Positions 70-18,191 of a DNA stretch of 34,764 nt are shown here, piece by piece (position 1 is the stretch's first letter; every line of letters starts with the position of its first letter). Below the pieces are notes generated by a model. That model worked only from the letters and a program-made list of their open reading frames with translations, ran no database searches and had not been told where the DNA came from. The translations under genes were made by a program, and so were the position numbers. Source of the DNA: a virus (taxonomy: Duplodnaviria; Caudoviricetes); the IMG/VR virus record IMGVR_UViG_3300027835_000014, positions 1-34,764 of that record, one strand, 5' to 3'.

Positions 70-99
70 TTAGTTTCGTTGACGCAGAAATGCGGGGAT
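70..99 (-). pseudogene. ftsZ: Orphan 3' end of ftsZ (displaced original tail, IPAFLRQRN*)
   Basis: Minus strand reads ATC CCC GCA TTT CTG CGT CAA CGA AAC TAA, matching the conserved FtsZ C-terminal peptide (D-I-P-x-F-L-R). Similarity stops upstream of the Ile codon. Confidence 0.8.
89..99. repeat. att core of the island (left junction)
   Basis: AATGCGGGGAT, repeated exactly at 6005-6015. Confidence 0.8.
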
Positions 100-225
100 T
101 TTTAAGACACAACCCCCTTCTTGCTTCAATTTCTATTATTAAGCACCACTTAATAATGTGTATTCTTATGTCTTCAAGAAGAATTTAACAAAGAAAACTT
201 GGCAAGTCAATACCCGAGGCTAAAA

Positions 226-687
226 TTATACTAAACCGAATCTAATTCCTTCATACTTTTTACGAAGAAGAGACGACAAATTGATTGACCTATCTAAAAT
301 TTTTATAATATCGTCTTTATCAATTACAATAACTGCTATACCATCTTGATCAAATGTTCTTTTTAAAGTTGGGTTGAATTCTTTATATACGACTCCGCTT
401 GTAGCAACAATAATTCCAGCTCTGCATTTTCTTGAGTGTAGTTTATGTATAAATTTTGCTATTTCTCCATACCCAACTGGGTCTTTCCAGTTTTTACACT
501 CAACTAAAATATAACTACCAAACTCATCAAAGATTTTTGAAGAATTATGAATAATTAAGTCGTAGTCATGTTCCGGATCTCTCTTTGAAACTTTTGCTTT
601 TGCCCTTTTGTATCTTACTATGAAACCTGATAGCGAATTAAAAAGAGCCTCCGAAAAATCTTCCAAAAGACTTCCGCTATTATTCAT
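226..687 (-). CDS. Mrr-like PD-(D/E)xK restriction endonuclease domain protein
   Basis: DYDLII...LVECKNWKDPVG...GIIVATSG motif series typical of Mrr_cat-type nucleases. Confidence 0.75.
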   Translation of the reverse strand: MNNSGSLLEDFSEALFNSLSGFIVRYKRAKAKVSKRDPEHDYDLIIHNSSKIFDEFGSYILVECKNWKDPVGYGEIAKFIHKLHSRKCRAGIIVATSGVVYKEFNPTLKRTFDQDGIAVIVIDKDDIIKILDRSINLSSLLRKKYEGIRFGLV

Positions 688-1372
688 TCTGACTTTCCTC
701 CTTCTCTTTATCGGTTAGCTTCTCCCATACTTCTTGGGCTTTATTAAGCTTAAGACGATCTACGCTTTCGTTGTCCTCATAACTTGGGATCAGGTAGTTT
801 TTTTTTGAAACTTCAACGATTTGAAGCGGATTATATTTTGCTTTCCCTCTCAACTTACCAATACTTTCTGCGTATAAAACTAAATTATTTTTTGACAGAC
901 TTTGACTTCTCAATGCTCTATATGCTTGAGATTCTATATAGTCTCTCCCATCAATTACATCCTCTGCGAATGCAGCAAGATAATAATCCCATGCTTTGAT
1001 TCGTTTATGTTGTGTAGAATAAATTTCTGCTATTTGATGTACTTGAGTTCCTTTATGTATTCGTTGATTGTGAGCATTTTGAAATTCTATTACTTTATTA
1101 AACCAAAGTTCATAAATTAATTTCGCATATTGATAAAATACTGCCTCAATGAAACCTAGTCTATAATATCCTTCCGCAATATTCTGAAACGCTGCAGTTT
1201 CGTGATAAGAATGTCTTTCTTTAAGATCCTCTATTGTCCATTGGTGAGCTTCAAGATAATCATAAACTTGACTAAACTCTGAATATGCTTTAAGACGTAA
1301 AGCGGGATTGTTTATTATGGAAGCAGTGTCTTGCAAAAATGAGGAAAAATTTGCAAATTCTTCTTGATTCAT
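680..1372 (-). CDS. Hypothetical alpha-helical (TPR-like) protein, translationally coupled to the nuclease
   Basis: 230-aa ORF overlapping the nuclease start by 8 nt; helical composition; no recognised motif. Confidence 0.6.
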   Translation of the reverse strand: MNQEEFANFSSFLQDTASIINNPALRLKAYSEFSQVYDYLEAHQWTIEDLKERHSYHETAAFQNIAEGYYRLGFIEAVFYQYAKLIYELWFNKVIEFQNAHNQRIHKGTQVHQIAEIYSTQHKRIKAWDYYLAAFAEDVIDGRDYIESQAYRALRSQSLSKNNLVLYAESIGKLRGKAKYNPLQIVEVSKKNYLIPSYEDNESVDRLKLNKAQEVWEKLTDKEKEESQNE

Positions 1373-1469
1373 ATCTTTAATATTAATTCTGCTTATTTTA
1401 CCATGACGAAGAGCAAAAAACTATAAAATGGAGCTATTGAAACTAGATCTAATACAATGGAGTCTTTTT

Positions 1470-2390
1470 TTATCCCGTGTTTTTTTCATCGTCTCCAAAA
1501 GGTAACTTTATTTGCTTTGATCCAGATCTGTGTTCAAGAACTTCTATTATTTCATAATCAGATTTTAATCCCGTATCAGAAATCCATTGTCTCTCATGTA
1601 ATTTAACCCTAAATAAATCATCTTTATAAAAACCATCTTTATTTTGTTGAACTTTATTGACAAAATTCTCATCAGTTATTGTTGCATAAAACTCAACATT
1701 CCCATCACTAAACTTCCACTTATGTCCTTCCGTAAATGATATAGTTGCAACAGTTAAAATAACCTCTCGTACTTCATCTCGCAATAATTCATCGGGTATA
1801 TCAGATAGCTTAAAATAATCTTTTTCTTCTTCTTTAATAACTATTTTTTCTTTACCTTTTTTAATTGCAAAACTACTAATCCCATCTTTTGATAAAGGCT
1901 CTGTAATTACTTTTTGTATTGATGTTCTAACTTTTACATTTGAAAATAGGGCTATTATTTTTGGGCTGGTTTCATATTTCTCACTATCTTCAACCTCTAC
2001 CACAGTTTTTGCTTCATTCACTTTCTCTATATTTTTTATCTTGCGGTTTCTTAACCAAAGAAGGAAACCAATTAACCCCCCTCCTGGAACTACAAATCCA
2101 AGCATTTGCAGAAGATTAGAAGCGGCATTGGCTTGATCAGAATTAAAAAGCGATGTTAATCCATCTATTCCCCCTTGAACAATTGATAGATCAAAACCAA
2201 ATGAACCACTCTTAAATGTACCCTTTACATTAACTTGAACTCTTGTTTTGTCTCCATATGTAATTTTATTTGTTTCATCTAGTACATCGCTTATAGCTAA
2301 TAGAGCAGGGGCTAAATCACGCACATCCATTTCGTTATTCTGGAGAGCTTCGCCATCATATACCACTTGAAAATATTCTTTTTGACTCAT
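1470..2390 (-). CDS. Conserved hypothetical protein of mobile elements
   Basis: 306-aa ORF with N-terminal YDGEAL..NEMDVRDLAPALL...GSF motif; preceded by TTGCTA-17-TAAACT ending 6 nt before the ATG. Confidence 0.7.
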   Translation of the reverse strand: MSQKEYFQVVYDGEALQNNEMDVRDLAPALLAISDVLDETNKITYGDKTRVQVNVKGTFKSGSFGFDLSIVQGGIDGLTSLFNSDQANAASNLLQMLGFVVPGGGLIGFLLWLRNRKIKNIEKVNEAKTVVEVEDSEKYETSPKIIALFSNVKVRTSIQKVITEPLSKDGISSFAIKKGKEKIVIKEEEKDYFKLSDIPDELLRDEVREVILTVATISFTEGHKWKFSDGNVEFYATITDENFVNKVQQNKDGFYKDDLFRVKLHERQWISDTGLKSDYEIIEVLEHRSGSKQIKLPFGDDEKNTG

Positions 2391-2429
2391 ACTTTTAGTT
2401 TATTCAGTAAGGAATTAAATAGCAAGTCA

Positions 2430-2459
2430 AAACTTGCATGCCGCCTTGCATGCAAGTTT
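2430..2459. repeat. Perfect 12-bp inverted repeat (operator or hairpin)
   Basis: AAACTTGCATGC-cgcctt-GCATGCAAGTTT, just upstream of the promoter of 1470-2390. Confidence 0.6.
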
Positions 2460-2530
2460 AATGAAAATAAATGAATATTTCAAGATGACAAACTACCACT
2501 TAATACCTCAGTTTTTACTTTAAAAGCTTC

Positions 2531-2558
2531 ATGTCGCACAATGGTTCATACGCGACAT
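2531..2558. other. dif/Xer-like 11-6-11 site
   Basis: ATGTCGCACAA-TGGTTC-ATACGCGACAT; arms are 8/11 inverted. Confidence 0.4.
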
Positions 2559-2827
2559 AAATTCAAGGCTAAATTTTTTACTAAAAATTCTATCAAGGCT
2601 GAGTCGTTTACTATAAGGCATATTATTGCCAAACATCTAATCAATTTACTAACCAATTTGTTGACGATCAATTTTGCAAATTTGCACTAACAGGGGTACT
2701 CGTAGCACAATTATCTGTAACTCTTGCAAGGATTATACTTATCGCATATATACAGAAGGGCTAAATACATACATAGAATATACATGAAAATATATTTTGC
2801 ATATATGTTTATGTATTTTTATATATA

Positions 2828-3163
2828 TCACTTTATATTATCAACATTCTTAATGAGATCAGTTGCGGTTTTATCCAACTCTTTTTCAAGTCCTTCGTTT
2901 TCTTTGATTAGTTTTCCAAAACGGATTACAGAAGCAGTAGTATCACAAGAGGAATTTGCGTAGCAGGATGTTACTTCATCAACAGAAACCTTGCAGTTAT
3001 TGTATAGCTGCCTGTTTATTCCTGTTACTGTCATACAGGCTTTTGTAATTTCGGCTGTTTGCCTTTTGCTTATATTTAACTCCCTCTCTTTGTATAAGTA
3101 AGTAGCTAGACAACCGAGAAGAAAAAATACGAGCGCAATTTTAATCTCTCTTTTTTTCAACAT
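2828..3163 (-). CDS. Hypothetical membrane-anchored/exported protein
   Basis: N-terminal hydrophobic helix, four Cys in the soluble part, C-terminal coiled coil. Confidence 0.6.
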   Translation of the reverse strand: MLKKREIKIALVFFLLGCLATYLYKERELNISKRQTAEITKACMTVTGINRQLYNNCKVSVDEVTSCYANSSCDTTASVIRFGKLIKENEGLEKELDKTATDLIKNVDNIK

Positions 3164-3419
3164 AGAATTTTATATCCCCTAAATCGTCTGCGTATTTTGG
3201 AAATAAATATCTATACGTTATATGAGCAACAATTGCAGAGATCAGAACTATGCCCATTGTTACATAGCCTCCAAGCTCAGATGATACAAAATCCTTACTA
3301 GCAAAATGCAGATATGCTGTCAAAGCTAAAATTGGCACTATAAGAGTTACGGATATGTCTATGATGTTGATTCGTATCTTATCTGCTAGCCTGTATTTTT
3401 TCATTTCTATTTTCGGCAT
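3141..3419 (-). CDS. Hypothetical two-TM membrane protein
   Basis: Two hydrophobic stretches; overlaps the next gene. Confidence 0.6.
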   Translation of the reverse strand: MPKIEMKKYRLADKIRINIIDISVTLIVPILALTAYLHFASKDFVSSELGGYVTMGIVLISAIVAHITYRYLFPKYADDLGDIKFYVEKKRD

Positions 3420-3430
3420 TCCTGTTAAAT

Positions 3431-3492
3431 GCTAACTCTCGCTTAGCGTAAGTCAAGACTAATATAAGGCTATTTGCTAAGTGTAGCTTAGT
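3431..3492. promoter_or_regulatory. Two putative XRE operators in a divergent promoter region
   Basis: GCTAACtctcgCTTAGC (3431-3447) and GCTAAGtgtagCTTAGT (3476-3492): same dyad, 5-nt spacer. Confidence 0.45.
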
Positions 3493-3526
3493 AGATTATC
3501 CTCTATATTACTTTGATAATCAAGGG

Positions 3527-3739
3527 GTGAGAAGTAATGCTAAATTGCCCAAATCACTTGGTAAGAAGATTCAAAAGCTAAGAAAGGATAAGAACCTTAC
3601 CCAAGAAGAAGCTGCGGAAAAAATAGGAATCAGCAGAGCATATATGGGATTTATTGAACAAGGTAGATATGCACCATCGTTAGAGATTTTAGAAAAGATT
3701 TCAAAAATACTTAAAGTACCCTTAAAAGAATTATTTTAA
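3527..3739 (+). CDS. XRE-family HTH transcriptional regulator
   Basis: LGKKIQKLRKDKNLTQEEAAEKIGISRAYMGFIEQGRYAPSL is a classic HTH_3 pattern; GTG start. Confidence 0.9.
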   Translation: MRSNAKLPKSLGKKIQKLRKDKNLTQEEAAEKIGISRAYMGFIEQGRYAPSLEILEKISKILKVPLKELF

Positions 3740-3978
3740 ATTCGTCATTATATAAATCCTCAAACTTCTTCACCCCCAGTTGGTCTGTTTTTGTAAGAAT
3801 CCTGTAAGAAATTTTTCTTATTCTACTCTATTTTACGTTAATATACTTTACTGCACATTATTTGTATTTAGTCTGATTTGACAATATAAATTTAGTTATC
3901 TATACCTATATTGGTAACATTTTCATTCAAAGTTTTTAAAGAGAATGTTGCATTTGCAAAAATTTATCGGGTGTAAAT

Positions 3979-4018
3979 AAAAGCTCCCGTTAGGACTACA
4001 CCCGAGACGGGAGTTTTT
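3979..4018. terminator. Bidirectional terminator-like hairpin / attenuator before 4021
   Basis: CTCCCGT (3984-3990)/ACGGGAG (4007-4013) stem with an A-run before and a T-run after. Confidence 0.55.
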
Positions 4019-4020
4019 AT

Positions 4021-4347
4021 ATGGATTCAATAAAAGATTTACTCGGCTCTAGAAGAAACAACGTATACGTTGATAGAAATATTAAAGACAACGTATACGT
4101 TGACGTTGCAGATATAGAAAAGATAAACGAAGCTGCGGATAAACACAAAGCGATAGGAGAATTGCTAGCGGAAAAGTTAGGTAAGCCTCAAAACGTAAAA
4201 CTCTACATCAAGCTCTCATATCTAAATCCCCCAGCTCTATTGTTTGAATGGGCAGCGTTAGCTCTTAGTGGCTTCAATGAAAGAAAAACAGAAAACCTAG
4301 GGAGTTATTTCTATGGAATAGTTAGGAATTTAGGAAGGGTGAAATGA
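4021..4347 (+). CDS. Small putative replication-initiator-like protein
   Basis: 108 aa; C-terminal helical ...ENLGSYFYGIV resembles replication-protein C-terminal domains; internal palindromic repeats. Confidence 0.4.
   Translation: MDSIKDLLGSRRNNVYVDRNIKDNVYVDVADIEKINEAADKHKAIGELLAEKLGKPQNVKLYIKLSYLNPPALLFEWAALALSGFNERKTENLGSYFYGIVRNLGRVK
4058..4103. repeat. Two identical 16-mers, each containing the 14-bp palindrome CAACGTATACGTTG
   Basis: ACAACGTATACGTTGA at 4058-4073 and 4088-4103 (30-bp period). Confidence 0.85.
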
Positions 4348-4508
4348 AAAAGTTACAAAATGACAAAAATTTAACAAAACAGATAAGGATAGATGCGGGA
4401 CTGCACCATTTACTCAAAATAAAAGCTGCGAAGTCTGGGATAAGCATTAAGACGCTTCTAGAGGGGTATATTGCCGACATATTGCAAGAAGAAACATCGG
4501 CAAATTAG
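4344..4508 (+). CDS. Ribbon-helix-helix DNA-binding protein (54 aa; not in ORF track)
   Basis: MKKLQNDKNLTKQIRIDAGLHHLLKIKAAKSGISIKTLLEGYIADILQEETSAN; ATGA overlap with the upstream stop; beta-strand plus two helices pattern. Confidence 0.75.
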   Translation: MKKLQNDKNLTKQIRIDAGLHHLLKIKAAKSGISIKTLLEGYIADILQEETSAN

Positions 4509-4511
4509 TTA

Positions 4512-4540
4512 TTGATTTTTTATGCAAGTAAATATACTAT
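4512..4540 (+). promoter_or_regulatory. sigma70-type promoter of the island integrase
   Basis: TTGATT-17 nt-TACTAT. Confidence 0.5.
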
Positions 4541-4598
4541 GGAAAATAGCTTCTTACAGTTTGCGGACTCTCCCACAAGCTACTCCCAGAAAGGGAGT

Positions 4599-5615
4599 AT
4601 GATTATAAACGAAAAGGATTTTTATTCTTTTCTATCAATCAAACAAAGTCTTTCTGAAACTAGCATCCGGCATTGCATAATCCGAATAAAAATAATAAAT
4701 GCTTGGATTTTAAAAGAAGGCTTAACTAAAGAATCCGTAGAAAAGTTTTTCATGGGATTAAAAAACAAAGGTCTTAAAAATAATAGCCTCAATACCTATT
4801 ACTTTACATTTAATCAACTTGTTGCCTACTGCAAAGATAGAGACTTAGCATACGACTTCTTTGATGGATTTAAATCTTTTAAAAAAACAAAGCCCGATAT
4901 TGTTATATTTACGCAAGAAGAGATAGAAAAAATATTAGCTACGAAGTTAACTTATGGTAAATTTCATGGCAACGACTGCAATTTTTTGGATTTTCGTTTT
5001 AGAACAATGACAATGTTTTTAGCTTATACGGGCTGTAGATACTCTGAAGCGGCAGAACTTACTATAAAACATCTTGACTTGAATGCAGGTAAGGCTATAT
5101 TTGTTAATACAAAAACGAATGAGAACAGAACTGCCTACTTCCGAGAGCCATTAAAAAGTCGTTTAGCAGAACTTGTTAAGGATAGAAAACCCAATGACAG
5201 AATATTTAGAAATTCAATGGAAACCCAAGTACATGTAACGGATTTCAGTGCAGACTTAAAGAGGAGAGCAGTTGTAGCAGGAATAACAAAAAGAACATTT
5301 CCCCATAATTTTAGACACTCATATATTACTCACATGCTAGAGGCAGGTGTACCCATTACGGAAGTAGCAACTCTTGTAGGACACAAAGATATTCAAACAA
5401 CATATTCTACATATATGCACTTAGCAGATAAAACATTAGAAAAGGCAGCCTTGAGACATCCTATGGTTAGAAAAACTGTTGATCCTATTGAGATAATAAA
5501 AACAATTAAGGAGGCTTTAGAAAATTTTCATTTAGAGGACGATCCCCGTTTTAGATATAATATTTCCGAAGGAGAGGCTGGATTGATCTTTGAATTAGGA
5601 TTGAAAACAGGTTAA
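4599..5615 (+). CDS. Tyrosine recombinase/integrase (island)
   Basis: TGCRYSE, HNFRHS, LVGH and TTYSTY catalytic motifs; start moved to ATG 4599, downstream of the promoter. Confidence 0.92.
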   Translation: MIINEKDFYSFLSIKQSLSETSIRHCIIRIKIINAWILKEGLTKESVEKFFMGLKNKGLKNNSLNTYYFTFNQLVAYCKDRDLAYDFFDGFKSFKKTKPDIVIFTQEEIEKILATKLTYGKFHGNDCNFLDFRFRTMTMFLAYTGCRYSEAAELTIKHLDLNAGKAIFVNTKTNENRTAYFREPLKSRLAELVKDRKPNDRIFRNSMETQVHVTDFSADLKRRAVVAGITKRTFPHNFRHSYITHMLEAGVPITEVATLVGHKDIQTTYSTYMHLADKTLEKAALRHPMVRKTVDPIEIIKTIKEALENFHLEDDPRFRYNISEGEAGLIFELGLKTG

Positions 5616-5616
5616 T

Positions 5617-5796
5617 CTACTCAGATTCTTCAATTATTTCCTTTATATTCTCTGGAGTAAACCGGATCATATCTCTGCTTCTTATTGGGAGAACACCATA
5701 AGCACCGGTAGATAATTTTCTGTATAAATCCTCTTCGTTTTCTGCATTCACCCTTCCGGCATCTCCCGTATTAACAATAATTCTATACGTCTTCAT
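5617..5796 (-). CDS. Small hypothetical protein
   Basis: ATG 5796 preceded by AAGGGGGTGA SD and TGGTATAAT extended -10. Confidence 0.6.
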   Translation of the reverse strand: MKTYRIIVNTGDAGRVNAENEEDLYRKLSTGAYGVLPIRSRDMIRFTPENIKEIIEESE

Positions 5797-5938
5797 CAGA
5801 TTCACCCCCTTTATCTAATTATACCAGACATATTCTTGAGGCTTCAGTCATGGGGACTATCTCTAATCCCCACTCTCAAACCACAAGCTATTCCCTATCG
5901 CTTCTTACAGTTCCTAGCTTTGTTACAATGAAGACATT

Positions 5939-5961
5939 AAAAAAGCACCCTCTCAGGTGCT
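5939..5961 (-). terminator. Rho-independent terminator after the replacement ftsZ tail
   Basis: Minus strand AGCACC-tgagag-GGTGCT followed by a T-run. Confidence 0.75.
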
Positions 5962-5985
5962 AGTAGAAAGTTGAAGCTATTTTAT

Positions 5986-6042
5986 TTAATTCCTCTGCCT
6001 TAGGAATGCGGGGATGTCCCAGTCATCTTGATGATGTAACAT
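5986..6042 (-). pseudogene. ftsZ: Second orphan ftsZ 3' end, inside an 18-codon mini-ORF (MLHHQDDWDIPAFLRQRN*)
   Basis: ATG TTA CAT CAT CAA GAT GAC TGG GAC ATC CCC GCA TTC CTA AGG CAG AGG AAT TAA; compare E. coli FtsZ DYLDIPAFLRKQAD. Confidence 0.8.
6005..6015. repeat. att core of the island (right junction)
   Basis: AATGCGGGGAT, identical to 89-99. Confidence 0.8.
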
Positions 6043-6056
6043 GTATTGTGTAGTAC

Positions 6057-6091
6057 AAGAGACTATAACTAAAAATTATGGTCTCTTTTTT
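6057..6091 (+). terminator. Terminator-like hairpin upstream of the prophage integrase
   Basis: AAGAGACTATAA-ctaaaaa-TTATGGTCTCTT followed by TTTT. Confidence 0.55.
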
Positions 6092-6117
6092 CGTGGAAAA
6101 ATTTAAAGAACAAGCTA

Positions 6118-6146
6118 ATCATAGGGGGTAATTACCTCTTTGTCAA
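6118..6146 (-). promoter_or_regulatory. Outward-facing sigma70 promoter aimed at the att junction
   Basis: Minus strand TTGACA-17 nt-TATGAT. Confidence 0.6.
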
Positions 6147-6302
6147 TAGGTCAAAATATTTAATAATTATTTAATAATTAGGTTGGACGGACAGCCTAAT
6201 CTAAAACTGCCTCTTGCTTAATCATTATGTATAAGTATATATTAAGGTTACCAAACACATACGCGGCTCAATTATCTAACTGCCCTCAAACGAGTTCTCA
6301 GT

Positions 6303-7385
6303 ATGGATAAAAAAGCATTTCTTAGTTGGTGTGTAAGCAAGCGTAATCTGAAAAAAAATAGTATGAAAAGTACTAGAATCAGATACGATTTGTTCTTCAA
6401 ATGGTTAGGTAGAAAAAAATTAACATTTGATATAGTAGCAGAGTATAAATTATACCTCGTAGAAAAAGGCTTAAGAAATGTTTCGATTAACACCCACCTT
6501 CGTGTTATACGCCTCATAGATATTTACGAAAGAGAATTTAATCAGGACTTAAACCTTTTTAAAAAAATTGATTACCTACCAAAAGAGAAACGCATACCGG
6601 TAATCCTAAGCGTTAAAGAAATCAATTCAATATTAAGCTCTGTAGTCCCTTATACCAAGAGATTTAAGCAAGAAGGGTGGGAAATTGACCTAAATAGAAA
6701 TCTTGCATTGTGGGTAATTGCTGGCACTGGTTGTAGGCTTAACGAGTGCCTTTCGCTTCGTAAATGTGACATTGTAATAGGACTTGAAAAAGGCAATATT
6801 TTAATACAAAACCGGCCAGATTTTACAGTTAAAAATGATCTCAGTCATAAAGTTCCTTTGCCAAATAATATCATTGTGAAACTTAAAAATTTCCTTGAAA
6901 AGAGAGAGCCAAAAGATTTGGCTTTTCAAACCGCAGCCGGCAACAAAATATCTGCTACTTCCATGGAGGATGACTGGCACAGAAGATTGGCTCTAGCAGG
7001 CATCACTACAGCCCCACATATCCATGATCTTCGCGCCAGCTATATCATGGAACATTTACGAAAGAAAACACCCCTACCAGAAATAAGCAAGCTCGTAGGT
7101 CACAAAGATGTTCAGACTACAATTGGCTATATGTCATTTAATGATGCTGACTTGTGGGATGCTGCCAAAAATCATCCATTCTTTGTTATGTCAGAAACAC
7201 CTTTAGAGAAAACAGAAAAGTTTATGAACTGGGTTGAAAAAATAAGGCATGAGCTTGAGTACAATGGCCAATTTTTATCTGCAGAGCGAAAGGAGACATT
7301 AAGAAGTTTGCTTGAGGCTATACACAAAATACTTGAAAACACACGCATTTGTTTTTTATCAGATAAGCAAGAGCATCAGCCTTGA
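6303..7385 (+). CDS. Tyrosine recombinase/integrase (prophage)
   Basis: TGCRLNE, HDLRAS, LVGH and TTIGY motifs; C-terminal extension. Confidence 0.92.
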   Translation: MDKKAFLSWCVSKRNLKKNSMKSTRIRYDLFFKWLGRKKLTFDIVAEYKLYLVEKGLRNVSINTHLRVIRLIDIYEREFNQDLNLFKKIDYLPKEKRIPVILSVKEINSILSSVVPYTKRFKQEGWEIDLNRNLALWVIAGTGCRLNECLSLRKCDIVIGLEKGNILIQNRPDFTVKNDLSHKVPLPNNIIVKLKNFLEKREPKDLAFQTAAGNKISATSMEDDWHRRLALAGITTAPHIHDLRASYIMEHLRKKTPLPEISKLVGHKDVQTTIGYMSFNDADLWDAAKNHPFFVMSETPLEKTEKFMNWVEKIRHELEYNGQFLSAERKETLRSLLEAIHKILENTRICFLSDKQEHQP

Positions 7386-7648
7386 GTCAATTTTTCAAGC
7401 ATTGTTGTAAATGTTTCTCTTATCGTTTCTGTCGAAAATTTTATACCATTGGCTGTTTGATTACCCATTTGGTTGAGTTCTGAGGCAACTTGTGCTATAT
7501 TTGGGTTTTTGACTGCCTTGCTATGCGCAGTAATACCTATTGCTAAAACATATTTTAGGTTTTTTCTGCCTTCTATGTAATCCAAAATGGCCTCAATTAG
7601 TTCTGTCCGTATACTTTCATCAGAGGGATTTTTGGAGTCTAAATTCAT
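7376..7648 (-). CDS. Hypothetical protein
   Basis: 90-aa ORF; TTGCAT-17-TACACT ends 6 nt before the ATG. Confidence 0.6.
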   Translation of the reverse strand: MNLDSKNPSDESIRTELIEAILDYIEGRKNLKYVLAIGITAHSKAVKNPNIAQVASELNQMGNQTANGIKFSTETIRETFTTMLEKLTQG

Positions 7649-7660
7649 TTACAAAGTGTA

Positions 7661-7714
7661 ATATATATGTATTAGAAATGCAATAGTTTTGAAGCTAAAT
7701 TGATACATATATAT
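7661..7714. repeat. 12-bp inverted repeat in a divergent promoter region
   Basis: ATATATATGTAT (7661-7672) / ATACATATATAT (7703-7714). Confidence 0.45.
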
Positions 7715-7752
7715 CTCTTAATATTTGTTTTGTCCATTGATAGGCTGGTGCT

Positions 7753-7980
7753 ATGTTCCTAAAAAGGAAAATAACAAAGCAAAACCTACGGTTGGCAAAA
7801 AACTTGAGAAAAGTAAGGAAGGCAAAGGATGTGACCCAAGAAATCCTTGCTGAAAAAGTGGGAGTATCCCCCGGATGGATCAGTAAAATTGAAAGGGGTA
7901 TATATCCGCCAAACATGAAATTACTTACTAAAATTGCTAGAGCATTGGACGTTAAAGTAAGGGACTTGATTCCGTTCTAA
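7753..7980 (+). CDS. XRE-family HTH regulator
   Basis: LRKVRKAKDVTQEILAEKVGVSPGWISKIERG HTH_3 pattern. Confidence 0.9.
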   Translation: MFLKRKITKQNLRLAKNLRKVRKAKDVTQEILAEKVGVSPGWISKIERGIYPPNMKLLTKIARALDVKVRDLIPF

Positions 7981-8031
7981 AAAAGTGTTCTACTGAATTA
8001 GGTAAGAATATTTTATGTTTCGTAGAAGCAT

Positions 8032-8253
8032 ATGAAACCTGAGCCTGTCATAATCATAGGACTGCTCATTGTCATTGCTATTCAGTTAGTGATTATTTTT
8101 CTTATCCTAAAAATCTCCAAAAAGCGGTATAAAACCATGGAGGGAAGATGCGCAACCTACCTCGATGAACTTGACAGGGAAAACCAAAGACTAAAAACAG
8201 GGAAAATAGCACTGAAAGCTAGGAAAAATTACAGTAAATTGATCGTAGATTAA
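8032..8253 (+). CDS. Small single-TM protein with basic coiled-coil tail
   Basis: Hydrophobic residues 6-26, then a charged helix. Confidence 0.55.
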   Translation: MKPEPVIIIGLLIVIAIQLVIIFLILKISKKRYKTMEGRCATYLDELDRENQRLKTGKIALKARKNYSKLIVD

Positions 8254-9677
8254 GGCTTTCTTTGCACCTTATATATAATAGTATCTCCTTTTTGAAAATA
8301 CTTCTTGATAAATTTGCTTTTCTCTAAATTTTGTAGTCCTTTTATAAAATCTTCTCTGCTAGCCAAAAACCCCCTGCTATCCCAATCTGTAGAAGTGCTG
8401 ACCATTAAATACTCTGGGTTGCCTGCCCACCTAAACCAGTTACAAGTTTTTTGTTTGCATGGTGAGTTAGCTGAAAAATCTTTTGTGGACGGGTAGAGGG
8501 TAAAAATTAAATCTCTATGACTTATATGTGGCGTTATATTGTTTTGAGCAACTATTGAAGCATTGGCAGGTAGATACTGCGCTGCAGCATTGATGCTTTT
8601 TACACTTGCCGGCTCTGTCCAAAACCAACGCTTTGTAAGGTAACTTAAAGGAAGATGAAAGTAATATTGAAAGAAAATTGCTACCAAAAGAAAATAGATT
8701 GCAATGTATTTGTTATTGAGTTTTCTAAATTTACTCAATGCAATTATTGTTGGCAAAATCAAAAGAGGTGCTAGTGAAACTCTATAATGCAAGAAAAATC
8801 CTTGCGCTGCACCAAGAGTATGGGCAAAAATAAAATAGTGGGTAATATCTGCTAACGCAGGCAATAAAAACATTGGCGCAAGTAAAGGCACAAAACCAAA
8901 CCAAGCTAGGCTGTAAAAGATGGTGTTTCTTTTATCAGATGTGTCATAAAAATAAGAAGTGTTGAGGTTGGAAAACAAGCCCCCCTTTTCTTGGTATCTG
9001 TAACCATCCTGGGTGAAATGGGGAAAGTAAATATAAAAAACAGAAAATAAATAAACACCAGAGACTAGTAATAGTGACAAAGAAAATTTATCTTTTCTTT
9101 TTAGTAAATAAACAAAACTTACCGCGCCTGTTAAAAGTGCAATATCTTCTTTGCAAATTATTGCAAGCACAAAAGCTACAATTGCCCAGAGTGTATTTTT
9201 GACATCTAAAAAATAAATAAACCAAGCAAGAAATGCTGCGCCAAAAGCAAGGCTATGAACATCAAACCAAAGTGCGTTTTGTATACCGTAAAACATTAAA
9301 TAACTAATAAGAAGTGAGAAGCACAATATCGGTTTAAGCCTTCTTTTCTTGGCAAGCAAATATATTGGTACGCCTGAAAAACTAATTAAAAATACCTGCA
9401 AAAGCAATAAGGTAACAGGACTACTGAAAAACCAATAGAAAGGAGAAAGTAGGACATAAATAAACTCAACATGATCTGTGAGAATTGAAGTAAAAGGGTA
9501 TGACTGCACTGTTGTTATTGGTGCTTGAAAATGACTATATTGCCAAACTATCTGGTCGCTAATTCCTAAATCAAAACCATAAGACCCATAATGGAGATGC
9601 CTAATAATGGAAAGAGTAGAATATGCAACGAAAAACAAAAGGCAGATAAAAAGTGCTATTTTATTTTGCTTTAACAC
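8250..9677 (-). CDS. Polytopic GT-C-fold membrane glycosyltransferase-like protein (DUF2079-like)
   Basis: FDLGISDQ, DH.E, FDVH and CKED motifs with many TM segments; own TGATATAAT extended -10 six nt before the GTG. Confidence 0.75.
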   Translation of the reverse strand: MLKQNKIALFICLLFFVAYSTLSIIRHLHYGSYGFDLGISDQIVWQYSHFQAPITTVQSYPFTSILTDHVEFIYVLLSPFYWFFSSPVTLLLLQVFLISFSGVPIYLLAKKRRLKPILCFSLLISYLMFYGIQNALWFDVHSLAFGAAFLAWFIYFLDVKNTLWAIVAFVLAIICKEDIALLTGAVSFVYLLKRKDKFSLSLLLVSGVYLFSVFYIYFPHFTQDGYRYQEKGGLFSNLNTSYFYDTSDKRNTIFYSLAWFGFVPLLAPMFLLPALADITHYFIFAHTLGAAQGFFLHYRVSLAPLLILPTIIALSKFRKLNNKYIAIYFLLVAIFFQYYFHLPLSYLTKRWFWTEPASVKSINAAAQYLPANASIVAQNNITPHISHRDLIFTLYPSTKDFSANSPCKQKTCNWFRWAGNPEYLMVSTSTDWDSRGFLASREDFIKGLQNLEKSKFIKKYFQKGDTIIYKVQRKP

Positions 9678-9697
9678 TCAAAAATTATATCACAGCA

Positions 9698-9913
9698 TTA
9701 CTTTACAGTCTTTGATTTTAGCCAAGTCCTGTTGTAGATATAGATAACTGCCGGCGCGAGAATGATAATGATGTCAGAAATAGCTTTAACAAGCTGCGTT
9801 GATTGATCTTGACCGATTACGCCAGCAATGGTAAAAATACCAATTACTTGAGTGGCTAGTGTTATCCAAAATTCAGTTGTTCGATAACCTGATTTTATAT
9901 TCATATCATTCAC
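9698..9913 (-). CDS. Putative holin (2 TM)
   Basis: GYRTTEFWIT start, two TMs, basic C-terminus; immediately downstream of the endolysin. Confidence 0.65.
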   Translation of the reverse strand: MNDMNIKSGYRTTEFWITLATQVIGIFTIAGVIGQDQSTQLVKAISDIIIILAPAVIYIYNRTWLKSKTVK

Positions 9914-9916
9914 CCC

Positions 9917-10963
9917 CTAACTTTTCAGTACTGCCCTATTTGCAAGCCTTTTTAAAAGCTCACCGGCAAGTACTGAGGTTTTTGCAGTGGTGTATGATGT
10001 GTTTTTGAGCTGGGCATTTGAATTAGTCAGCGTTTGATTTGTTTTTCTCAAGCCTTCTTTGTCTAATTCTGCTTGTTCAAGCAATTTTTTGGTTTGCACC
10101 AACTCATCAGATTGAGGACTGAGTACGTCAATTTGATCTTGCAGGGCTTTGAGCTGCGCAGGAAACGCATCAATTTTTGCCTGTTGAGTTTTTATAGTAG
10201 TATTGTCATTTTCAATTGTGCCGTTGAGGCCTTTTATTGTATCCTCTTTTACTTTGAGATCTGCATCATATTTGTCTTTGCCTATAAGTTCACCATGCTG
10301 TACTTTGTTGAAAGTATCCACACACACTTTCATACTATCTTTATTATTGAGGTCAAGCCCACCATACATATCTGCACCGGCAGCAGGTGATGTGCTAGCC
10401 GTTGCCGGCACATTTCCTTTATAAACTACAAACTTGAGGATTGTTTGAGCTGGGTTGTTACCGTAGTTTTTGGTGAAATCATCCACAGAGCCGGGTACTT
10501 GCCATGGGTCAGCAATAACAACCTTTTTGCCATCACATTCAACTGCAACAACAAAGTGTGTCTGTATGCCATCACCGGGGTTGTGGTTAAAATCAACTTC
10601 AAGAATAACTGATAAGGTAGGGTCAGCAAGTAAAGTTTTTAATAAATTGAGGTCTGCTGGGGCGTTAGTAAAGTCATATGCTTTTTGAAAAACAATATCA
10701 CCGTAAATCACCTGTAGCATGTTGTCCGCAGCAAATTTTGCTGGGTCATTATGATTGCCTTGTGCGTTGTAATACACATGACCATTGGTGAAAAAATCAT
10801 CTAGCTTTGAAGGGTTAATGTCTTTGCCATAGTATGCTGCTACCATTGCAAAAGAAGTAACATAGCAACCATATTGACCAAGTGTTGAACCATTTACTGT
10901 GCCAAGTCTCTGCGCTGCCCATTGTGGGTCTCTTTGGCTGAATATCTTAGGTAAGTTTCTCAT
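9917..10963 (-). CDS. Putative endolysin: C39-like cysteine peptidase domain plus coiled coil
   Basis: SQRDPQW...GCYVTSFAMV...THFVV...IADP (Cys-His-Asp); flanked by holin-like genes. Confidence 0.7.
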   Translation of the reverse strand: MRNLPKIFSQRDPQWAAQRLGTVNGSTLGQYGCYVTSFAMVAAYYGKDINPSKLDDFFTNGHVYYNAQGNHNDPAKFAADNMLQVIYGDIVFQKAYDFTNAPADLNLLKTLLADPTLSVILEVDFNHNPGDGIQTHFVVAVECDGKKVVIADPWQVPGSVDDFTKNYGNNPAQTILKFVVYKGNVPATASTSPAAGADMYGGLDLNNKDSMKVCVDTFNKVQHGELIGKDKYDADLKVKEDTIKGLNGTIENDNTTIKTQQAKIDAFPAQLKALQDQIDVLSPQSDELVQTKKLLEQAELDKEGLRKTNQTLTNSNAQLKNTSYTTAKTSVLAGELLKRLANRAVLKS

Positions 10964-11002
10964 ATAGTTGAGGTGTCAAAAACCTTTTAGCTTACTCAGT
11001 CA

Positions 11003-11035
11003 ATTATAGTTTGGTTGAGGGTGTGATCTTATACA
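11003..11035 (-). promoter_or_regulatory. Late-type promoter motif (endolysin)
   Basis: TGTATAAG-N19-TATAAT. Confidence 0.65.
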
Positions 11036-11394
11036 TTTTTCAAAACAGGGGCGATAATTGATTTACTAAGTTCGTTGGCCATTTGTGGATTTGCTGCAAA
11101 GTGTTCTTTTAATGCTGTTTTTATCAAAATTTCTAAATCTGTTTTTTGTGTATTGAGTGTATGTACTTGACCTTCAAGGTAGGTAATTCTTTGCCCTTGC
11201 TTCTCTGTCAAAGTTTCTAAATCTTTTATTTTTACATCTCTAGCTCGAAGCAGATCATTCAATGTGTCGTTTAGGTCTTTTGCCACATCACTTTTACCTT
11301 TTTTCAACTGAGACCATAAATAAGGTATTCCAATGGCAATAACTCCTAAACCTAATATAACCTCTACAATTGTTCTGATGTATTCAAAATTCAT
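11029..11394 (-). CDS. Holin-like/lysis accessory protein (1 TM plus coiled coil)
   Basis: N-terminal TM, heptad-rich C-terminus, located upstream of the endolysin. Confidence 0.55.
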   Translation of the reverse strand: MNFEYIRTIVEVILGLGVIAIGIPYLWSQLKKGKSDVAKDLNDTLNDLLRARDVKIKDLETLTEKQGQRITYLEGQVHTLNTQKTDLEILIKTALKEHFAANPQMANELSKSIIAPVLKNV

Positions 11395-11397
11395 ATT

Positions 11398-12573
11398 TTA
11401 AATCATTGCTAAAACGCCACCGCCTGAACTTGCTAAAACTGGTGTGAGCGTTGAATTATAAGAGCCAGTAATGCTGGTTGGAGTTGCGCCAGAGTAGTCA
11501 ATTTGAGCTGTGCCATTTCCGCCATTTCCACCTGTGCCACCAAAGCTAGCTGTGCAAGTACCCCCTATGCCACCCCCAGTATTGAAAGTTATATTGCTTA
11601 TATTCTGACCTTGACACAATGCGCAACCACCTGCGCTAGCACCGCTTGCTGCAAGGCTAGAGTTAGAATTACCGTTTAGGCCTCTGCAATAGAAAACTAT
11701 ACCAGTAATCGTTGGTGCTAAAAGATGGGCGTTTCCTGATCCATTCACTCCGCTTGAAGCTGGCGTGCCATTTGACCAGTTACCACCAGCCCCAGAGCTA
11801 GCACCACCCATGGTCATATTTTGGCAGTCAATAGTTGAGACAGTGTTGCCTGTCACGCCACCAATGCCTGTATTTCGCGTACTGCCACTAGTCCCAGAGG
11901 TGTAATTTGAGCCACCCCCAGAGTTGCCCCCCTCAACGTGACCACCATCTGTTGCGCCTTGCGCTCCCCCTGCACCATTCCCATTTGCGCTATTTGTGTT
12001 ACTACCAACGCCTGCGTAGCCTTCACCTTGCTGCCCAGTCCCATTGTTGTTTGCGCCACTCCCAGCCCTGAACCCTAAGCCATCCATAACAATCTGGCCA
12101 TTGTTTGACTGTCCAGTAATTGAGACATTTGCAGCCATAAAGAACTCACCACCATAGCTACCATTCCATGCTGGTACTGTAAGTTGTATGCCATTATTGA
12201 TGACTACATTGCGCCAATTTGCTGAGGTTATAATTTGTGCGCCAGTATTCCAAGTCTTTGAAAAAGGATATAGAAAAGTAGCTACACCACCAGATACAGA
12301 AATAAGTTTATTGTATTCCCAGTTTGGGGTAGCATTTGCACCAGTGCCTTGAGATTGCACAATTTTGCAGACTAAATTGTATGTACCATCTGCTAGGTCT
12401 GGGGTACTCCCAGTTGTCGCGCCTGACGTGCCAGTACAACGTGAATTATAAAATTTGTCGCTTGAGTCGAGGGTATGATTGCTTGAGTAGGTTTTGTCAC
12501 CGTCAGCACCAGTACCATATTTAATGCCAAAAGGTGTTGATGATGAATCTGAGTTTTTTAGTTGTCTTGCCAT
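11398..12573 (-). CDS. Glycine-rich tail fibre / receptor-binding protein
   Basis: Gly-rich GGG/GAG segments; last gene of the tail module. Confidence 0.6.
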   Translation of the reverse strand: MARQLKNSDSSSTPFGIKYGTGADGDKTYSSNHTLDSSDKFYNSRCTGTSGATTGSTPDLADGTYNLVCKIVQSQGTGANATPNWEYNKLISVSGGVATFLYPFSKTWNTGAQIITSANWRNVVINNGIQLTVPAWNGSYGGEFFMAANVSITGQSNNGQIVMDGLGFRAGSGANNNGTGQQGEGYAGVGSNTNSANGNGAGGAQGATDGGHVEGGNSGGGSNYTSGTSGSTRNTGIGGVTGNTVSTIDCQNMTMGGASSGAGGNWSNGTPASSGVNGSGNAHLLAPTITGIVFYCRGLNGNSNSSLAASGASAGGCALCQGQNISNITFNTGGGIGGTCTASFGGTGGNGGNGTAQIDYSGATPTSITGSYNSTLTPVLASSGGGVLAMI

Positions 12574-12585
12574 AGTTCATATTTG

Positions 12586-13449
12586 CTAAACATTCTGATT
12601 TATTGTTGTCCCTTCACTTGTATTGGTTGAGTCGTTGGTGACAGTCAAAAAAGTAATGGCAAAGTCATCTGTTTTACTCGCACCGGTTGTAAGAGTTGGT
12701 ACAACGCCATTTGGCCAAGAGATACCAGCAAACCAAGTGATTGTGCGCCCACCTACACCATCCTGTGTAATTCTTATTTGAATTGTTTTACCGGTTAGAG
12801 GCACATTCAAAAGTGCAAGGGTTACATTACCAGCAGGCATGTTGATTTGAAACTTTTTACCTTGCGCTAAGTCAAGAGTGGCAGTACCACCAGCAGTAGG
12901 ATTATAAACCTGCCATTTTTCCTGGTTGAAAATATCATTTCTAAATGCAACTTGCTGTCTCACGTCTGTAATTGAGGTTGGTGTAGTTGCCCCAGAATTT
13001 ACCAACACATTGCTAAGTATTGTATAAGGATTGCCAGCACCAACTGCAGATTGAATTGTTGACCCTGATGGTGGCACAGGTGATGCTGCTGCAGTACCTA
13101 AAACTTCGAGTACAAAGGTTGTATTGGTGTCGTCTGAGTTGGCAGAAATAGTGAGGTCTTTATATAAAACAATTGATGCAATCCTTGGGTTTCCAGTACT
13201 ATTTGATGTCAAAGCCTTATTAGTAATGGCAGCGTCATTGATAACTGGGTAACCATTGCCCCCGGATGCTGCAAGTAAATAAGCGCGTCCAGTTGCAATA
13301 TTGACTGATAGCCCAGAACCGGCAGTGACTAAAAATTGACCTGCCAAGACATCAAAAACCCCGGATGCTTTTAAAAGGTCAGTAATGAATTGCAGCACAC
13401 CGGCCTCTGTGATTGCTGTTGCTGCTGTTTTTATACTTCGTAGAGCCAT
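12586..13449 (-). CDS. Minor tail / baseplate-fibre protein
   Basis: GSGLSVNIATGRAY..NPRI...ITDVR N-terminal module and QDGVGGRTITW...PTLTT...D C-terminal module typical of siphophage fibres. Confidence 0.7.
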   Translation of the reverse strand: MALRSIKTAATAITEAGVLQFITDLLKASGVFDVLAGQFLVTAGSGLSVNIATGRAYLLAASGGNGYPVINDAAITNKALTSNSTGNPRIASIVLYKDLTISANSDDTNTTFVLEVLGTAAASPVPPSGSTIQSAVGAGNPYTILSNVLVNSGATTPTSITDVRQQVAFRNDIFNQEKWQVYNPTAGGTATLDLAQGKKFQINMPAGNVTLALLNVPLTGKTIQIRITQDGVGGRTITWFAGISWPNGVVPTLTTGASKTDDFAITFLTVTNDSTNTSEGTTINQNV

Positions 13450-13455
13450 GATTTA

Positions 13456-13487
13456 ATTATATTGAGAAAAAAAGGCTAACTTATACA
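13456..13487 (-). promoter_or_regulatory. Late-type promoter motif
   Basis: TGTATAAG-N18-TATAAT-N6-ATG. Confidence 0.7.
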
Positions 13488-13495
13488 AAAATGTT

Positions 13496-13729
13496 TTAGG
13501 TGAGGGCTACTACTTTGATTGTGCCTGCTTTATTCCATTTTAGTTGGTTGCTCGTTGAGTTTATCCAAACCTCATTATTTTTGGGAGTTCCGGGGTCTGA
13601 TGAAACCACTTTTATAACCAAAGCTCCGGTATCATCTGGCGGTATTGTTATAACTTTGACAACAAGGCCTTTTTCCATCAGCTCAAGCCTTCTGCTTAAA
13701 TCAATGATAATTTTTCTTAGTTCATCCAT
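13496..13729 (-). CDS. Small tail-tip protein
   Basis: Coiled-coil start and P..NEVWINST..QLKW motif; in-operon position. Confidence 0.55.
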   Translation of the reverse strand: MDELRKIIIDLSRRLELMEKGLVVKVITIPPDDTGALVIKVVSSDPGTPKNNEVWINSTSNQLKWNKAGTIKVVALT

Positions 13730-13732
13730 ACT

Positions 13733-14788
13733 TTATATTGTTAATAAATCAAGCGTTGCAATCATTGTGCCAGTCTGTTCAATATCTACTGTACGCTTTT
13801 TGACCCTGTATTGTGCGTAGCTTATATTTTCCTCTGGTACATCTACAATAATTGTGTCACCTAACCCATAACTAGTGAGGTCAATATCGTCACCATGTTT
13901 TTTGGTTATCTGAGCAAGTGGCAATTTTTCAAGATCAAGTTTTTTGTCACCCTCTGTGGCAAGCACAGTAGTGTCACTGGTGGTGGGATCAGTCAATACA
14001 TCCTCAAGTAGTGTGTATTGATTTATTGTTGGGTCAGATGCAATCCTGACTGACTCTGCAACGTCATTGTTGATGCCTTGGCCTCTGGCCATAACCCGGT
14101 TGGTTATGCTCAAAAGCAATGGTATTTTGACACCATCTGCAAGAGTAGTCAGTGCATCCAGCACAACATTGGCGCGCAGTGAGCCTTTGGTAGGGTAATA
14201 CAAATTGAGCTTGAGAGTTACATCAATATCAAAATCAAAGCTACCTTTAACTCTGTAATTTGAGAGGTCAGATATAGACTGCTTGATGTCTGCCCGGATA
14301 TATTCAGGGCTGACTGTCAAACCAGTTGTAACAGTTGTCCCTTGTGTTATACCAAGATCTGCTGATGCAATACCGGATGTTTGATTTATATTTATTAAAT
14401 CCCATGGAATTGTAGCCGGGTCAACCGCGCTATATGTTTTGAGTGCTGCAGTGCGTCTTTTTTGTAATAAGGCAAAATAGTCACATGCAGCAATTTGCAG
14501 GCTGTAGTTTCCTGCAGCGTCTTTTGTACGCTGATAATCTGAGCAAACACCAAGCCAAAGTTTATTGCCAGCAGAGTCCTCAACCCAAATCTGTGAAAAC
14601 ACTGCAGTAAAAAGATCAAATACATTTGTACCATACGGTGCGCACACCTGCTCTTTTATTGTGGAGTAGTCAAAATTAAAAGTCGCATTTGCACCATTGT
14701 TAAGTTCCTCCACCCAGTTGATAGAGTTGTAGGGTAATTCAAATAGGTCACCGGTTGTGAGATGTTTAAGAAAAACTTTGTATGTCAT
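13733..14788 (-). CDS. Baseplate hub / Tal-like tail tip protein
   Basis: Follows Dit; ITNRVMARGQG and YGLGDTIIV motifs. Confidence 0.7.
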   Translation of the reverse strand: MTYKVFLKHLTTGDLFELPYNSINWVEELNNGANATFNFDYSTIKEQVCAPYGTNVFDLFTAVFSQIWVEDSAGNKLWLGVCSDYQRTKDAAGNYSLQIAACDYFALLQKRRTAALKTYSAVDPATIPWDLININQTSGIASADLGITQGTTVTTGLTVSPEYIRADIKQSISDLSNYRVKGSFDFDIDVTLKLNLYYPTKGSLRANVVLDALTTLADGVKIPLLLSITNRVMARGQGINNDVAESVRIASDPTINQYTLLEDVLTDPTTSDTTVLATEGDKKLDLEKLPLAQITKKHGDDIDLTSYGLGDTIIVDVPEENISYAQYRVKKRTVDIEQTGTMIATLDLLTI

Positions 14789-14790
14789 GG

Positions 14791-15630: not shown

Positions 15631-15739
15631 AGCTTATAGTTAAATTTAGTTATTTTATTTTTTATCATTTTTTTATGATTTAGCCTCAAAGATTTTGTTG
15701 GCCACTTTTTCTGCAGAAAAAATTGGCACTATCCTATAA

Positions 15740-17548: not shown

Positions 17549-17554
17549 ACTTCA

Positions 17555-17586
17555 ATTATAAGGAGAAAAAAAGGCAGTCTTATATA
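17555..17586 (-). promoter_or_regulatory. Late-type promoter motif
   Basis: TATATAAG-N18-TATAAT-N6-ATG. Confidence 0.7.
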
Positions 17587-17609
17587 TTTAATGAAAAGAG
17601 GACTGATGC

Positions 17610-18187: not shown

Positions 18188-18191
18188 AAGT

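Follow-up and report, generated by a model that had tools for sequence, protein, structure and literature searches.

Phage 21 is said to integrate at the icd gene of Escherichia coli. The prophage e14 enters the same gene, and its description reports gene-end replacement, an orphan gene end and a conservative residue change as a possible outcome (PMC6379469). Such replacement is given as the rule for integrases targeting tRNA or protein genes in PMC10111431 and PMC12884075. Housekeeping genes can also accumulate tandems of unrelated elements, including integrase-less cis-mobilizable elements (CIMEs), at their 3′ ends according to two further papers, where integrative and conjugative elements (ICEs), integrative and mobilizable elements (IMEs) and CIMEs target rplL, rpsI, rpmG, guaA, trmE and tRNA-Lys in streptococci and other bacteria (PMC5704250, PMC4701971). 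Here we describe a 34,764-bp stretch of DNA recorded as a virus of the Caudoviricetes (IMGVR_UViG_3300027835_000014), whose whole length we call the window. With a probability of roughly 90%, it holds a 5.9-kb island and a tailed prophage that entered in tandem at the 3′ end of the ftsZ gene of a Microgenomates bacterium, likely each through its own tyrosine integrase (intA and intB), and at the same core within the codons for I-P-A. The C-terminal tail of FtsZ is the peptide bound by FtsA and SepF.

Six-frame translation of the window revealed two minus-strand FtsZ tails, IPAFLRQRN-stop at 99-70 and DDWDIPAFLRQRN-stop at 6027-5986, which are its only matches to the pattern IPxFL[RK] (70-99, 5986-6027). 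The tail copies are 73% identical over 30 nt (repeat family D6) and share an 11-bp core, ATCCCCGCATT, which is present exactly twice, on the minus strand, in copies 5916 bp apart; past this core the codons of the two tails differ synonymously. This is the pair of orphan tails, at 70-99 and 5986-6015, on which the original prediction, made from the sequence alone, had been built, and the tyrosine integrase that it placed on each side of the second tail is also there, with PF00589 at 4512-5615 and 6303-7385, both on the plus strand. When the whole window was simulated 300 times with a first-order Markov model, two matches to the codons of [IV]P[AT]FLR arose in 0 runs and one match in 3; the window tail has the same ending as real FtsZ proteins of the host group, and a tRNA and tmRNA search of the window returned none. 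The features of the junctions are as follows.

70..99 (-): native host ftsZ tail IPAFLRQRN-stop, displaced; island attachment site attR, toward ftsZ (spacer 97-92, right arm 91-81)
98..108 (-): core arm on the island side, imperfectly repeating the arm 6007-5997 in inverted orientation (best symmetry geometry over 44 site pairs)
123..129 (-): outer element-end motif TTGAAGC, which mirrors 5971-5978 in sequence
4512..5615 (+): island integrase intA (PF00589), likely start Met30 (about 4599)
5944..5961 (-): intrinsic terminator brought by the island, following the recoded tail, predicted from sequence
5971..5978 (-): outer motif AGCTTCAA, the inverted partner in sequence of 123-129
5986..6015 (-): island-supplied recoded tail IPAFLRQRN-stop, now the prophage/island junction (spacer 6013-6008)
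6016..6042 (-): phage-side attachment arm mimicking the host D-W-D codons, identical in the sibling genome G518
6016..34764 (-): tailed prophage with HK97-type head and long tail (terminase, portal, protease, capsid, tail tube, tape measure)
6118..6146 (-): sigma-70-like promoter facing the attachment site, about 131 bp from the Ile codon (11/12, consensus match only)
6303..7385 (+): prophage integrase intB (PF00589, phrog_1, 9 homologues)

An uninserted ftsZ site exists in the probable source sample, whose contigs fork exactly at 70-99. The flank 1-99 has a depth of 65.1; the island branch, at 20.2, is one contig running from 70 to 11414 and crossing the island-prophage junction, and a 49-bp contig at 45.3 joins the ftsZ end to the 70-99 tail, so the empty site carries about two thirds of the depth. 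The extra 19 bases of this contig read P-E-S-D-W-D in frame with I-P-A, thus identifying 70-99 as the native ftsZ end of the host, and the host FtsZ ends as predicted (...PESDWD joined to IPAFLRQRN-stop). A length of 49 bp is what one expects for a fork of ftsZ immediately behind the 11 shared bases with 31-letter words, a word length assumed from the 30-base overlaps. This evidence comes from two runs, likely of one data set, and is not independent of the window; an island-only or phage-only allele was not listed among the contigs of this sample. The claim that the crossover of the island lies within the I-P-A codons, and that a recoded tail plus terminator (5961-5944) came with it, is supported. 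As to the host, intA homologues at 65-77% identity are named Patescibacteria, Gottesmanbacteria and Levybacteria; the closest intB record bears the name of another phylum, and the same locus was found in G518, whose order includes a Levybacteria record. We infer a Levybacteria-like Microgenomates bacterium (Patescibacteria), ultra-small and living in groundwater.

The far end of the prophage was predicted to adjoin a full-length ftsZ with a third tail, and this arrangement was seen in G518. Its contig C44 carries a full-length ftsZ (TIGR00065, E 7e-130) followed by a third recoded tail, the outer motif and a terminator; beyond the terminator lie early phage genes (RecT-like, replication), after which the sequence is 85-91% identical to window positions 25,413-34,637. 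Contig C37 of the same genome holds an intB 94% identical to ours and the same phage end, the arm 6016..6042 included, joined at the core to the tail of another island (L028); behind the core this different island has an integrase 44% identical to intA, in opposite orientation, and its own orphan tail. In genome G609 the island type of G518 sits directly at ftsZ with the phage absent, which indicates that island and phage enter independently. In genome G012 (contig C6; L192, L024 and L013), two intact intA-type islands stand in tandem at ftsZ, about 16 kb apart, with a third tail on another contig.

Junctions resembling attP were found for two intB-type phages (L031 and contig C7 of G618), and none for the window island or phage in the contigs. 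In L031 an intB relative is accompanied by D-D-W-D codons, core and tail, and next comes a 50% homologue of the phage gene that stands first behind ftsZ in G518; by this layout we take L031 to be an uninserted attP. The G618 contig runs from the RecT side through tail and integrase to the terminases, a layout like that of L031 but without D-D-W, and the ftsZ of G618 is followed by cellular-looking genes and ends in IPAFLRQKN-stop with a different spacer wobble base. Uninserted phage sites (L031:803, L166:1961) offer IPAFLRHRN-stop, a non-synonymous tail.

The last codons of ftsZ proved to be an integration site well beyond the window, in 37 arrays with a full-length ftsZ and an element-supplied tail, which gave 44 consecutive attL/attR pairs. 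Of the inserts between them, 20 carry an integrase of the clade described below and span 4.5-14.3 kb, and 24 lack one and span 69 bp to 15 kb, one with an intB fragment. Over the 44 pairs the site can be read as two inverted arms of 11 bp, separated by a spacer of 6-8 bp that falls in the I-P-A/T codons. Symmetry peaks at the I-P-A/T centre, with 6.8 of 11 pairs in the rebuilt attP (6- or 8-bp spacer) and 5.3 in the rebuilt attB, the median of all geometries being 2.8 of 11. The spacer wobble bases are shared between the two copies above shuffled pairs (0.75 vs 0.46 and 0.84 vs 0.67; 1 of 5000 shuffles each), and those at +12, +14 and +17 are shared no more than in shuffles. Past the spacer not one of the 44 pairs is identical (2-9 changes), yet 33 encode the same peptide; in the other 11 the difference falls at the first residue (3) or past the spacer (8), and orphans may have drifted. 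A TTGAAGC-type motif precedes the orphan copy in 15/20 integrase-bearing and 12/24 integrase-less inserts and only 1/37 full ftsZ copies, counts obtained with a loose regular expression written after the sequences were seen; a motif similar to 5971-5978 follows the ftsZ-side copy in 11/20 integrase-bearing inserts. The motif at 123-129 is likely an accessory or arm-type binding site.

The association with ftsZ extends to the integrases themselves. We collected 94 non-redundant integrases from all fetched loci, dropping the duplicates L150, L126, L165 and L040, and defined a clade of 64 that score above 250 bits with either of two profiles, the remaining 30 serving as controls. An FtsZ tail lies within 450 bp of 56 of the 64, at 105-400 bp, and 34 stand beside a long FtsZ frame; such a tail is missing beside all 30 lower-scoring integrases, 25 of them with 450 bp of sequence on either side, and the predicted association of integrase homologues with ftsZ is thereby borne out. 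Six of the clade members without a tail lie close to the end of a contig or record. All 64/30 integrases but eight more distant ones went into a quick tree of 86 rows, which placed all tail-adjacent integrases in one branch (SH-like approximate likelihood ratio test, SH-aLRT, 89), with intB-type and intA-type sub-branches at 99 each. Three gene layouts are intermixed on this tree, which suggests that the integrase module flipped several times; integrases about 70% identical (window intA vs L007 and L010) face ftsZ in some islands and away in others. The original prediction spoke of two different elements, and the elements are distinct, their integrases being 29% identical; both integrases nevertheless belong to the one ftsZ-associated branch. 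The R-K-H-R-H-Y catalytic set is complete in intA and intB, and both lie 288-400 bp from the central tail (5986-6015).

Among 401 genomes sampled from the class, the tail pattern occurs in 239, and more than once in 34 by hand count; at least 20 of the 401 have ftsZ and an orphan tail on one contig. In 10 of the 34 the second match was left unread (G066, G070, G107, G173, G217, G300, G301, G327, G372, G395), and some of these are probably chance or assembly duplicates. Within the order, 26 of 245 genomes match the intB profile, 25 of them with a clade member, and a phylum-wide sample of 401 genomes gave no strong integrase match besides the centre genome; the ftsZ-associated branch is, in the samples searched, largely confined to Microgenomates. 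These genomes are incomplete, and G081, one of 401 rows, contributes one control integrase (L102) on which no claim is built. The tail pattern gave 0 matches in viral contigs. Three provirus records carry related integrases but were trimmed at that gene; they contain no tail and are therefore uninformative on the site.

The following course of events would account for the locus. The codons of D/E-W/F-D/E-I-P-A/T-F-L-R-Q form, as measured, an imperfect inverted repeat of about 11 bp + 6-8 bp spacer + 11 bp. The elements bring a more symmetrical version of the site, their own synonymous F-L-R-Q-x-x-stop codons behind it and a terminator, and the identity blocks suggest that strands are exchanged inside the spacer. 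The empty and filled alleles show that ftsZ stays whole with the tail of the element, the old tail being moved to the far end. A gene end rebuilt in this way offers a target once more, so that later elements stack there; in the window the island most likely arrived before the prophage, which would then have gone into the rebuilt end, the reverse order being possible. Integrase-less inserts, here 0.07-15 kb long, are likely decayed or trans-mobilised relatives.

Three other explanations have to be weighed against this course. The original prediction had placed the crossover of the prophage upstream, at about Q-D-D-W-D, which would make two adjacent targets in ftsZ. In its favour, the orphan next to intB agrees with the host along 20 bp (D-W-D-I-P-A-F codons), and D-x-W-D precedes the orphan also in L031 and G316. 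However, the host itself reads P-E-S-D-W-D, and the Q-D-D-W-D stretch is the same in the window and G518 orphans, although the ftsZ of the G518 host uses other codons there; since it is the same despite differing hosts, this stretch is phage DNA that resembles the host. D-D-W-D occurs in the attP-like L031, and the intB relative of G618 does without it. Direct repeats are 11 bp for the island and 8 bp for the sibling phage in G518, whose junctions, read across two contigs, share only ATCCCCGC with mismatches on both sides. Had the exchange taken place ahead of the Ile codon, with an arm like that of the G518 phage, the empty-site contig would moreover measure 61 bp, not 49 bp, assuming a base common to both phages. 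We regard a second crossover point as improbable, and the prophage most likely used the same core as the island.

Still less probable, to our minds very much so, is that the tails are homology-driven copies, made by RecA, by the phage RecT acting on a captured ftsZ end or by tandem duplication, with the integrases as passengers. The phage does encode a RecT-like protein and 24 of the 44 inserts have no integrase, but identity covers only 6-11 bp in most pairs, the breakpoints fall at one symmetric centre in 37 arrays, the integrase stands 105-400 bp from the tail in 56 of 64 cases, and the outer motifs are conserved. We give a similarly slight chance to a host Xer/dif-type site at which the inserts would be passengers of the host recombinase, comparable to integrative mobile elements exploiting Xer (IMEX) or dif modules. 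Such a site would fit the 11-6-11 geometry, the best family and fold matches (XerA, XerD, XerH), the toxin-antitoxin pairs in small integrase-less inserts and the near-fixation of the site codons even in single-copy genomes; it could account for some of the integrase-less inserts. All Xer matches are, however, far below the curated cut-offs (120 vs 220 bits for XerA, 103 vs 330 for XerD), the integrase travels within the inserts and is patchy in the order (25/245 genomes), and the arms appear unlike the canonical dif sequence.

Returning to integration of both elements by their own integrases at the I-P-A core, several points weigh against it. The 44 pairs are not phylogenetically independent, and positions -4 and +26 are also shared above shuffles (14 and 50 of 5000), which indicates that kinship inflates identity between copies. 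A spacer wobble base differs in 12/44 pairs (4/20 integrase-bearing), unlike strict spacer homology; either some mismatch is tolerated or copies have drifted. One clade integrase with ample flanks has no tail nearby (L034) and another only a decayed copy (L053), and the single branch rests on the quick tree with its SH-aLRT of 89. The window runs out just upstream of the terminase genes, before reaching ftsZ, and in G518 the phage ends are on separate contigs with the middle absent, so the ends are linked via identity with the window phage and not by one contig. Depths were taken from assembled contigs, not reads. The joint of the predicted 5916-bp island circle appears in none of the contigs of four runs, an absence that carries no weight, since contigs drop rare forms. 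Two other joints, 6018-to-67 and 196-to-5993, had sides of 25-32 bases, probably derive from related elements of other organisms and were set aside.

Integration may have left an imprint on ftsZ. The codon of the target proline is CCC in 16 of 18 single-copy genomes (L207-L224), which were chosen among the pattern matches for their RQRN-like ends; upstream prolines of the same genes have CCC at 19 of 237 positions (8%), and seven other conserved ftsZ prolines are CCC in at most 5 genomes. Our reading of this near-fixation is element-driven homogenisation; selection on another function of the DNA could also produce it. Behind their ftsZ, L216 and L224 retain a decayed tail or motifs of the element-end kind, which resemble scars of lost elements.

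The promoter-like sequence has counterparts at -131 to -136, found in 6 of the 9 elements in which the integrase is directed away from the orphan; the loci beside the window are L165, L031, L166, L176 and L177. No match of at least 10/12 occurs in the 520 bp behind ftsZ in G518. In the free phage this promoter would face the early genes, and it may be a switch that integration cuts, or an outward promoter for downstream host genes. Between promoter and terminator an in-frame ATG at 6042 opens an 18-codon frame, MLHHQDDWDIPAFLRQRN-stop, which ends in the FtsZ tail. Among the five intB-type ends tested for the ATG, the frame is limited to the window and G518; the ATG is absent in L031 and L167, and G618 has TTG. 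Orphan tails as a general source of peptides were rejected, for an in-frame ATG lies within 20 codons of only 6/44, and a stop directly precedes many of them. It is conceivable, though we rate it doubtful, that the elements write the ftsZ tail, with the rare codon CCC fixed across the order through their repeated entry and exit and lysogeny editing the division protein, and that the 18-residue frame is a decoy interfering with division. If so, integration would swap the last residues of the FtsA/SepF-binding peptide (R-H-R-N from two free phages, RQ-type ends being usual), and the phage junction would cut a strong promoter off from the early genes.

The island (100-5985) has a low G+C content of 30-37% and, besides intA and the terminator, holds the following genes.

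226..687 (-): Mrr-type restriction endonuclease domain, cargo (PF04471, E 1.5e-9)
680..1372 (-): 230-residue helical TPR-like protein, cargo (no match in Pfam, PHROG, NCBIfam or PADLOC)
1470..2390 (-): candidate anti-phage PDC-S42, LAPAL family, phrog_3243, cargo (PADLOC E 8.6e-92; NF053583 E 5.8e-80)
2828..3419 (-): two small predicted membrane proteins of 111 and 92 residues (open reading frames, no family match)
3527..3739 (+): Cro/C1-type HTH regulator, island core (PF01381)
4344..4508 (+): 54-residue basic protein just upstream of intA

The 230-residue protein has neighbours in the Atlas that are TPR-like or unnamed, a lead only, and one island cargo gene is a "putative phage structural protein" according to NCBIfam and candidate defence according to PADLOC. 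Homologues of the HTH regulator occur in 10/20 integrase-bearing inserts, and those of the 54-residue protein in 7/20 integrase-bearing and 0/24 integrase-less inserts, the latter protein being a candidate directionality factor or regulator. The model of intA (predicted local distance difference test, pLDDT, 84) shows a core-binding and a catalytic domain with a short C-terminal helix and hairpin extension and no N-terminal arm-binding domain; its best folds are XerA, the Tn1549 Int core and XerH. Hairpins comparable to the terminator stand behind the ftsZ-side copy in many related islands. Searches of the island frames against Pfam, PHROGs and NCBIfam, with the 54-residue frame outside the scan, recognised no relaxase or conjugation gene, and no island frame matched the primase, replication or packaging-interference genes typical of phage satellites. 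A 14-bp palindrome occurs twice, at 4059-4072 and 4089-4102, 30 bp apart, inside a 108-residue frame upstream of intA.

The prophage shows the traits of a temperate member of the Caudoviricetes, namely terminase, portal, HK97-type capsid and tail genes, an integrase and host junctions, one of these in the window and the other in G518; no clear repressor was identified in its annotation. Near the integrase end lies a 475-residue DUF2079 membrane protein (8250-9677, minus strand), which we take to be glycosyltransferase-like and which is possibly a surface-modifying moron. Between capsid and head-tail adaptor, 21243-26020 (minus strand) is a run of unannotated genes of 95-652 residues, whose near-equal lengths of 202, 202, 182 and 184 residues hint at paralogous head decoration proteins.

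Elsewhere in the set the cargo is varied. Sixty-three proteins of integrase-less inserts, the two largest inserts left out, include PIN/Phd pairs, Fic, DUF433/DUF5615, a TIR effector, a restriction helicase, a mercury-resistance-like set and metabolic genes. From integrase-bearing inserts 56 larger proteins were picked, 10 of which match PADLOC at E 1e-8 (among them AbiP2, a cyclase and a type II restriction-modification pair). Defence cargo was located at L007:15744-17237, L178:13448-14764, L191:6230-13988, L186:3964-5676 and L118:4048-4965, the types being AbiP2-like reverse transcriptase, a cyclase of the cyclic-oligonucleotide-based anti-phage signaling system (CBASS) type, type II restriction-modification, OLD/AriA-like ATPases and a TIR effector. 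A 7.8-kb insert in G316 (L167; C137:1048-8825) has a 75-residue intB fragment and vitamin B6 synthase-like genes; its tail shifts from QGKH-stop to QGKQH-stop, and G316 has a second, different ftsZ end. Inserts of only 69-96 bp, and also short palindromic pieces with a partial second tail right behind a tail copy, occur among L017:18038-18107, L173:2983-3079, L114, L115, L123, L175, L185 and L186, and they may represent a miniature element at the ftsZ site.

A survey of 430,134 proviruses placed 39.9% in coding sequences, and neither its text nor one supplementary file mentions ftsZ or Patescibacteria (PMC13626063). The accessible portion of a patescibacterial phage paper is likewise silent on ftsZ (PMC13059738), PMC8371274 mentions it only in another context, and PMC5704250 and PMC4701971 have 0 mentions of it, ftsK being targeted there at its 5′ end. 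In the literature searched, with the TIGER tables and most subscription journals outside it, we found no report of ftsZ as an integration target; the earlier suggestion that the case is undescribed therefore stands for the target but not for the mechanism, which is well known at other housekeeping genes. The finding itself is well supported, and in the literature searched ftsZ is a new target for this known mechanism, with the gene end recoded and not copied, and the core common to islands and phages. The site would be a lineage-wide integration hotspot in Patescibacteria, whose prophages and islands are poorly mapped; an integrase beside IPAFLR-stop would serve as a host-assignment marker for orphan phage contigs, the site as a place to mine defence and toxin-antitoxin cargo, and the integrase and its attachment site as a candidate pair for engineering Patescibacteria. 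Dyad symmetry for an integrase can thus come from a protein motif and not from a tRNA stem, and a testable idea is that wobble bases in two codons set the host range.

As in XerA/XerH, Cre and the integrase of mycobacteriophage Brujita, the intA model combines core-binding and catalytic folds without an N-terminal arm domain, and the site resembles that of simple tyrosine recombinases in its two 11-bp inverted arms and short spacer; the ftsZ integrases differ from them in being element-borne, with a C-terminal helix-hairpin extension, conserved outer motifs and sub-cut-off Xer scores. With the ICEs, IMEs and CIMEs the locus shares site-specific tyrosine integrases, an intact gene, tandems of unrelated elements, integrases less than 30% identical and chimeric internal attachment sites. 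ICE and IME direct repeats, however, measure 12-54 bp with an exact gene end for rplL and guaA, whereas the ftsZ end is recoded in 44/44 pairs, and the window island has no recognised relaxase or conjugation gene. As at e14 and icd, a tyrosine integrase would enter the 3′ part of a protein gene and the element supply a replacement end, but the 163-bp icd duplication of e14 contrasts with ten codons at ftsZ that share only 6-11 exact bases, and at ftsZ the elements enter the codons for the binding peptide of a protein essential to division, where several element types stack.

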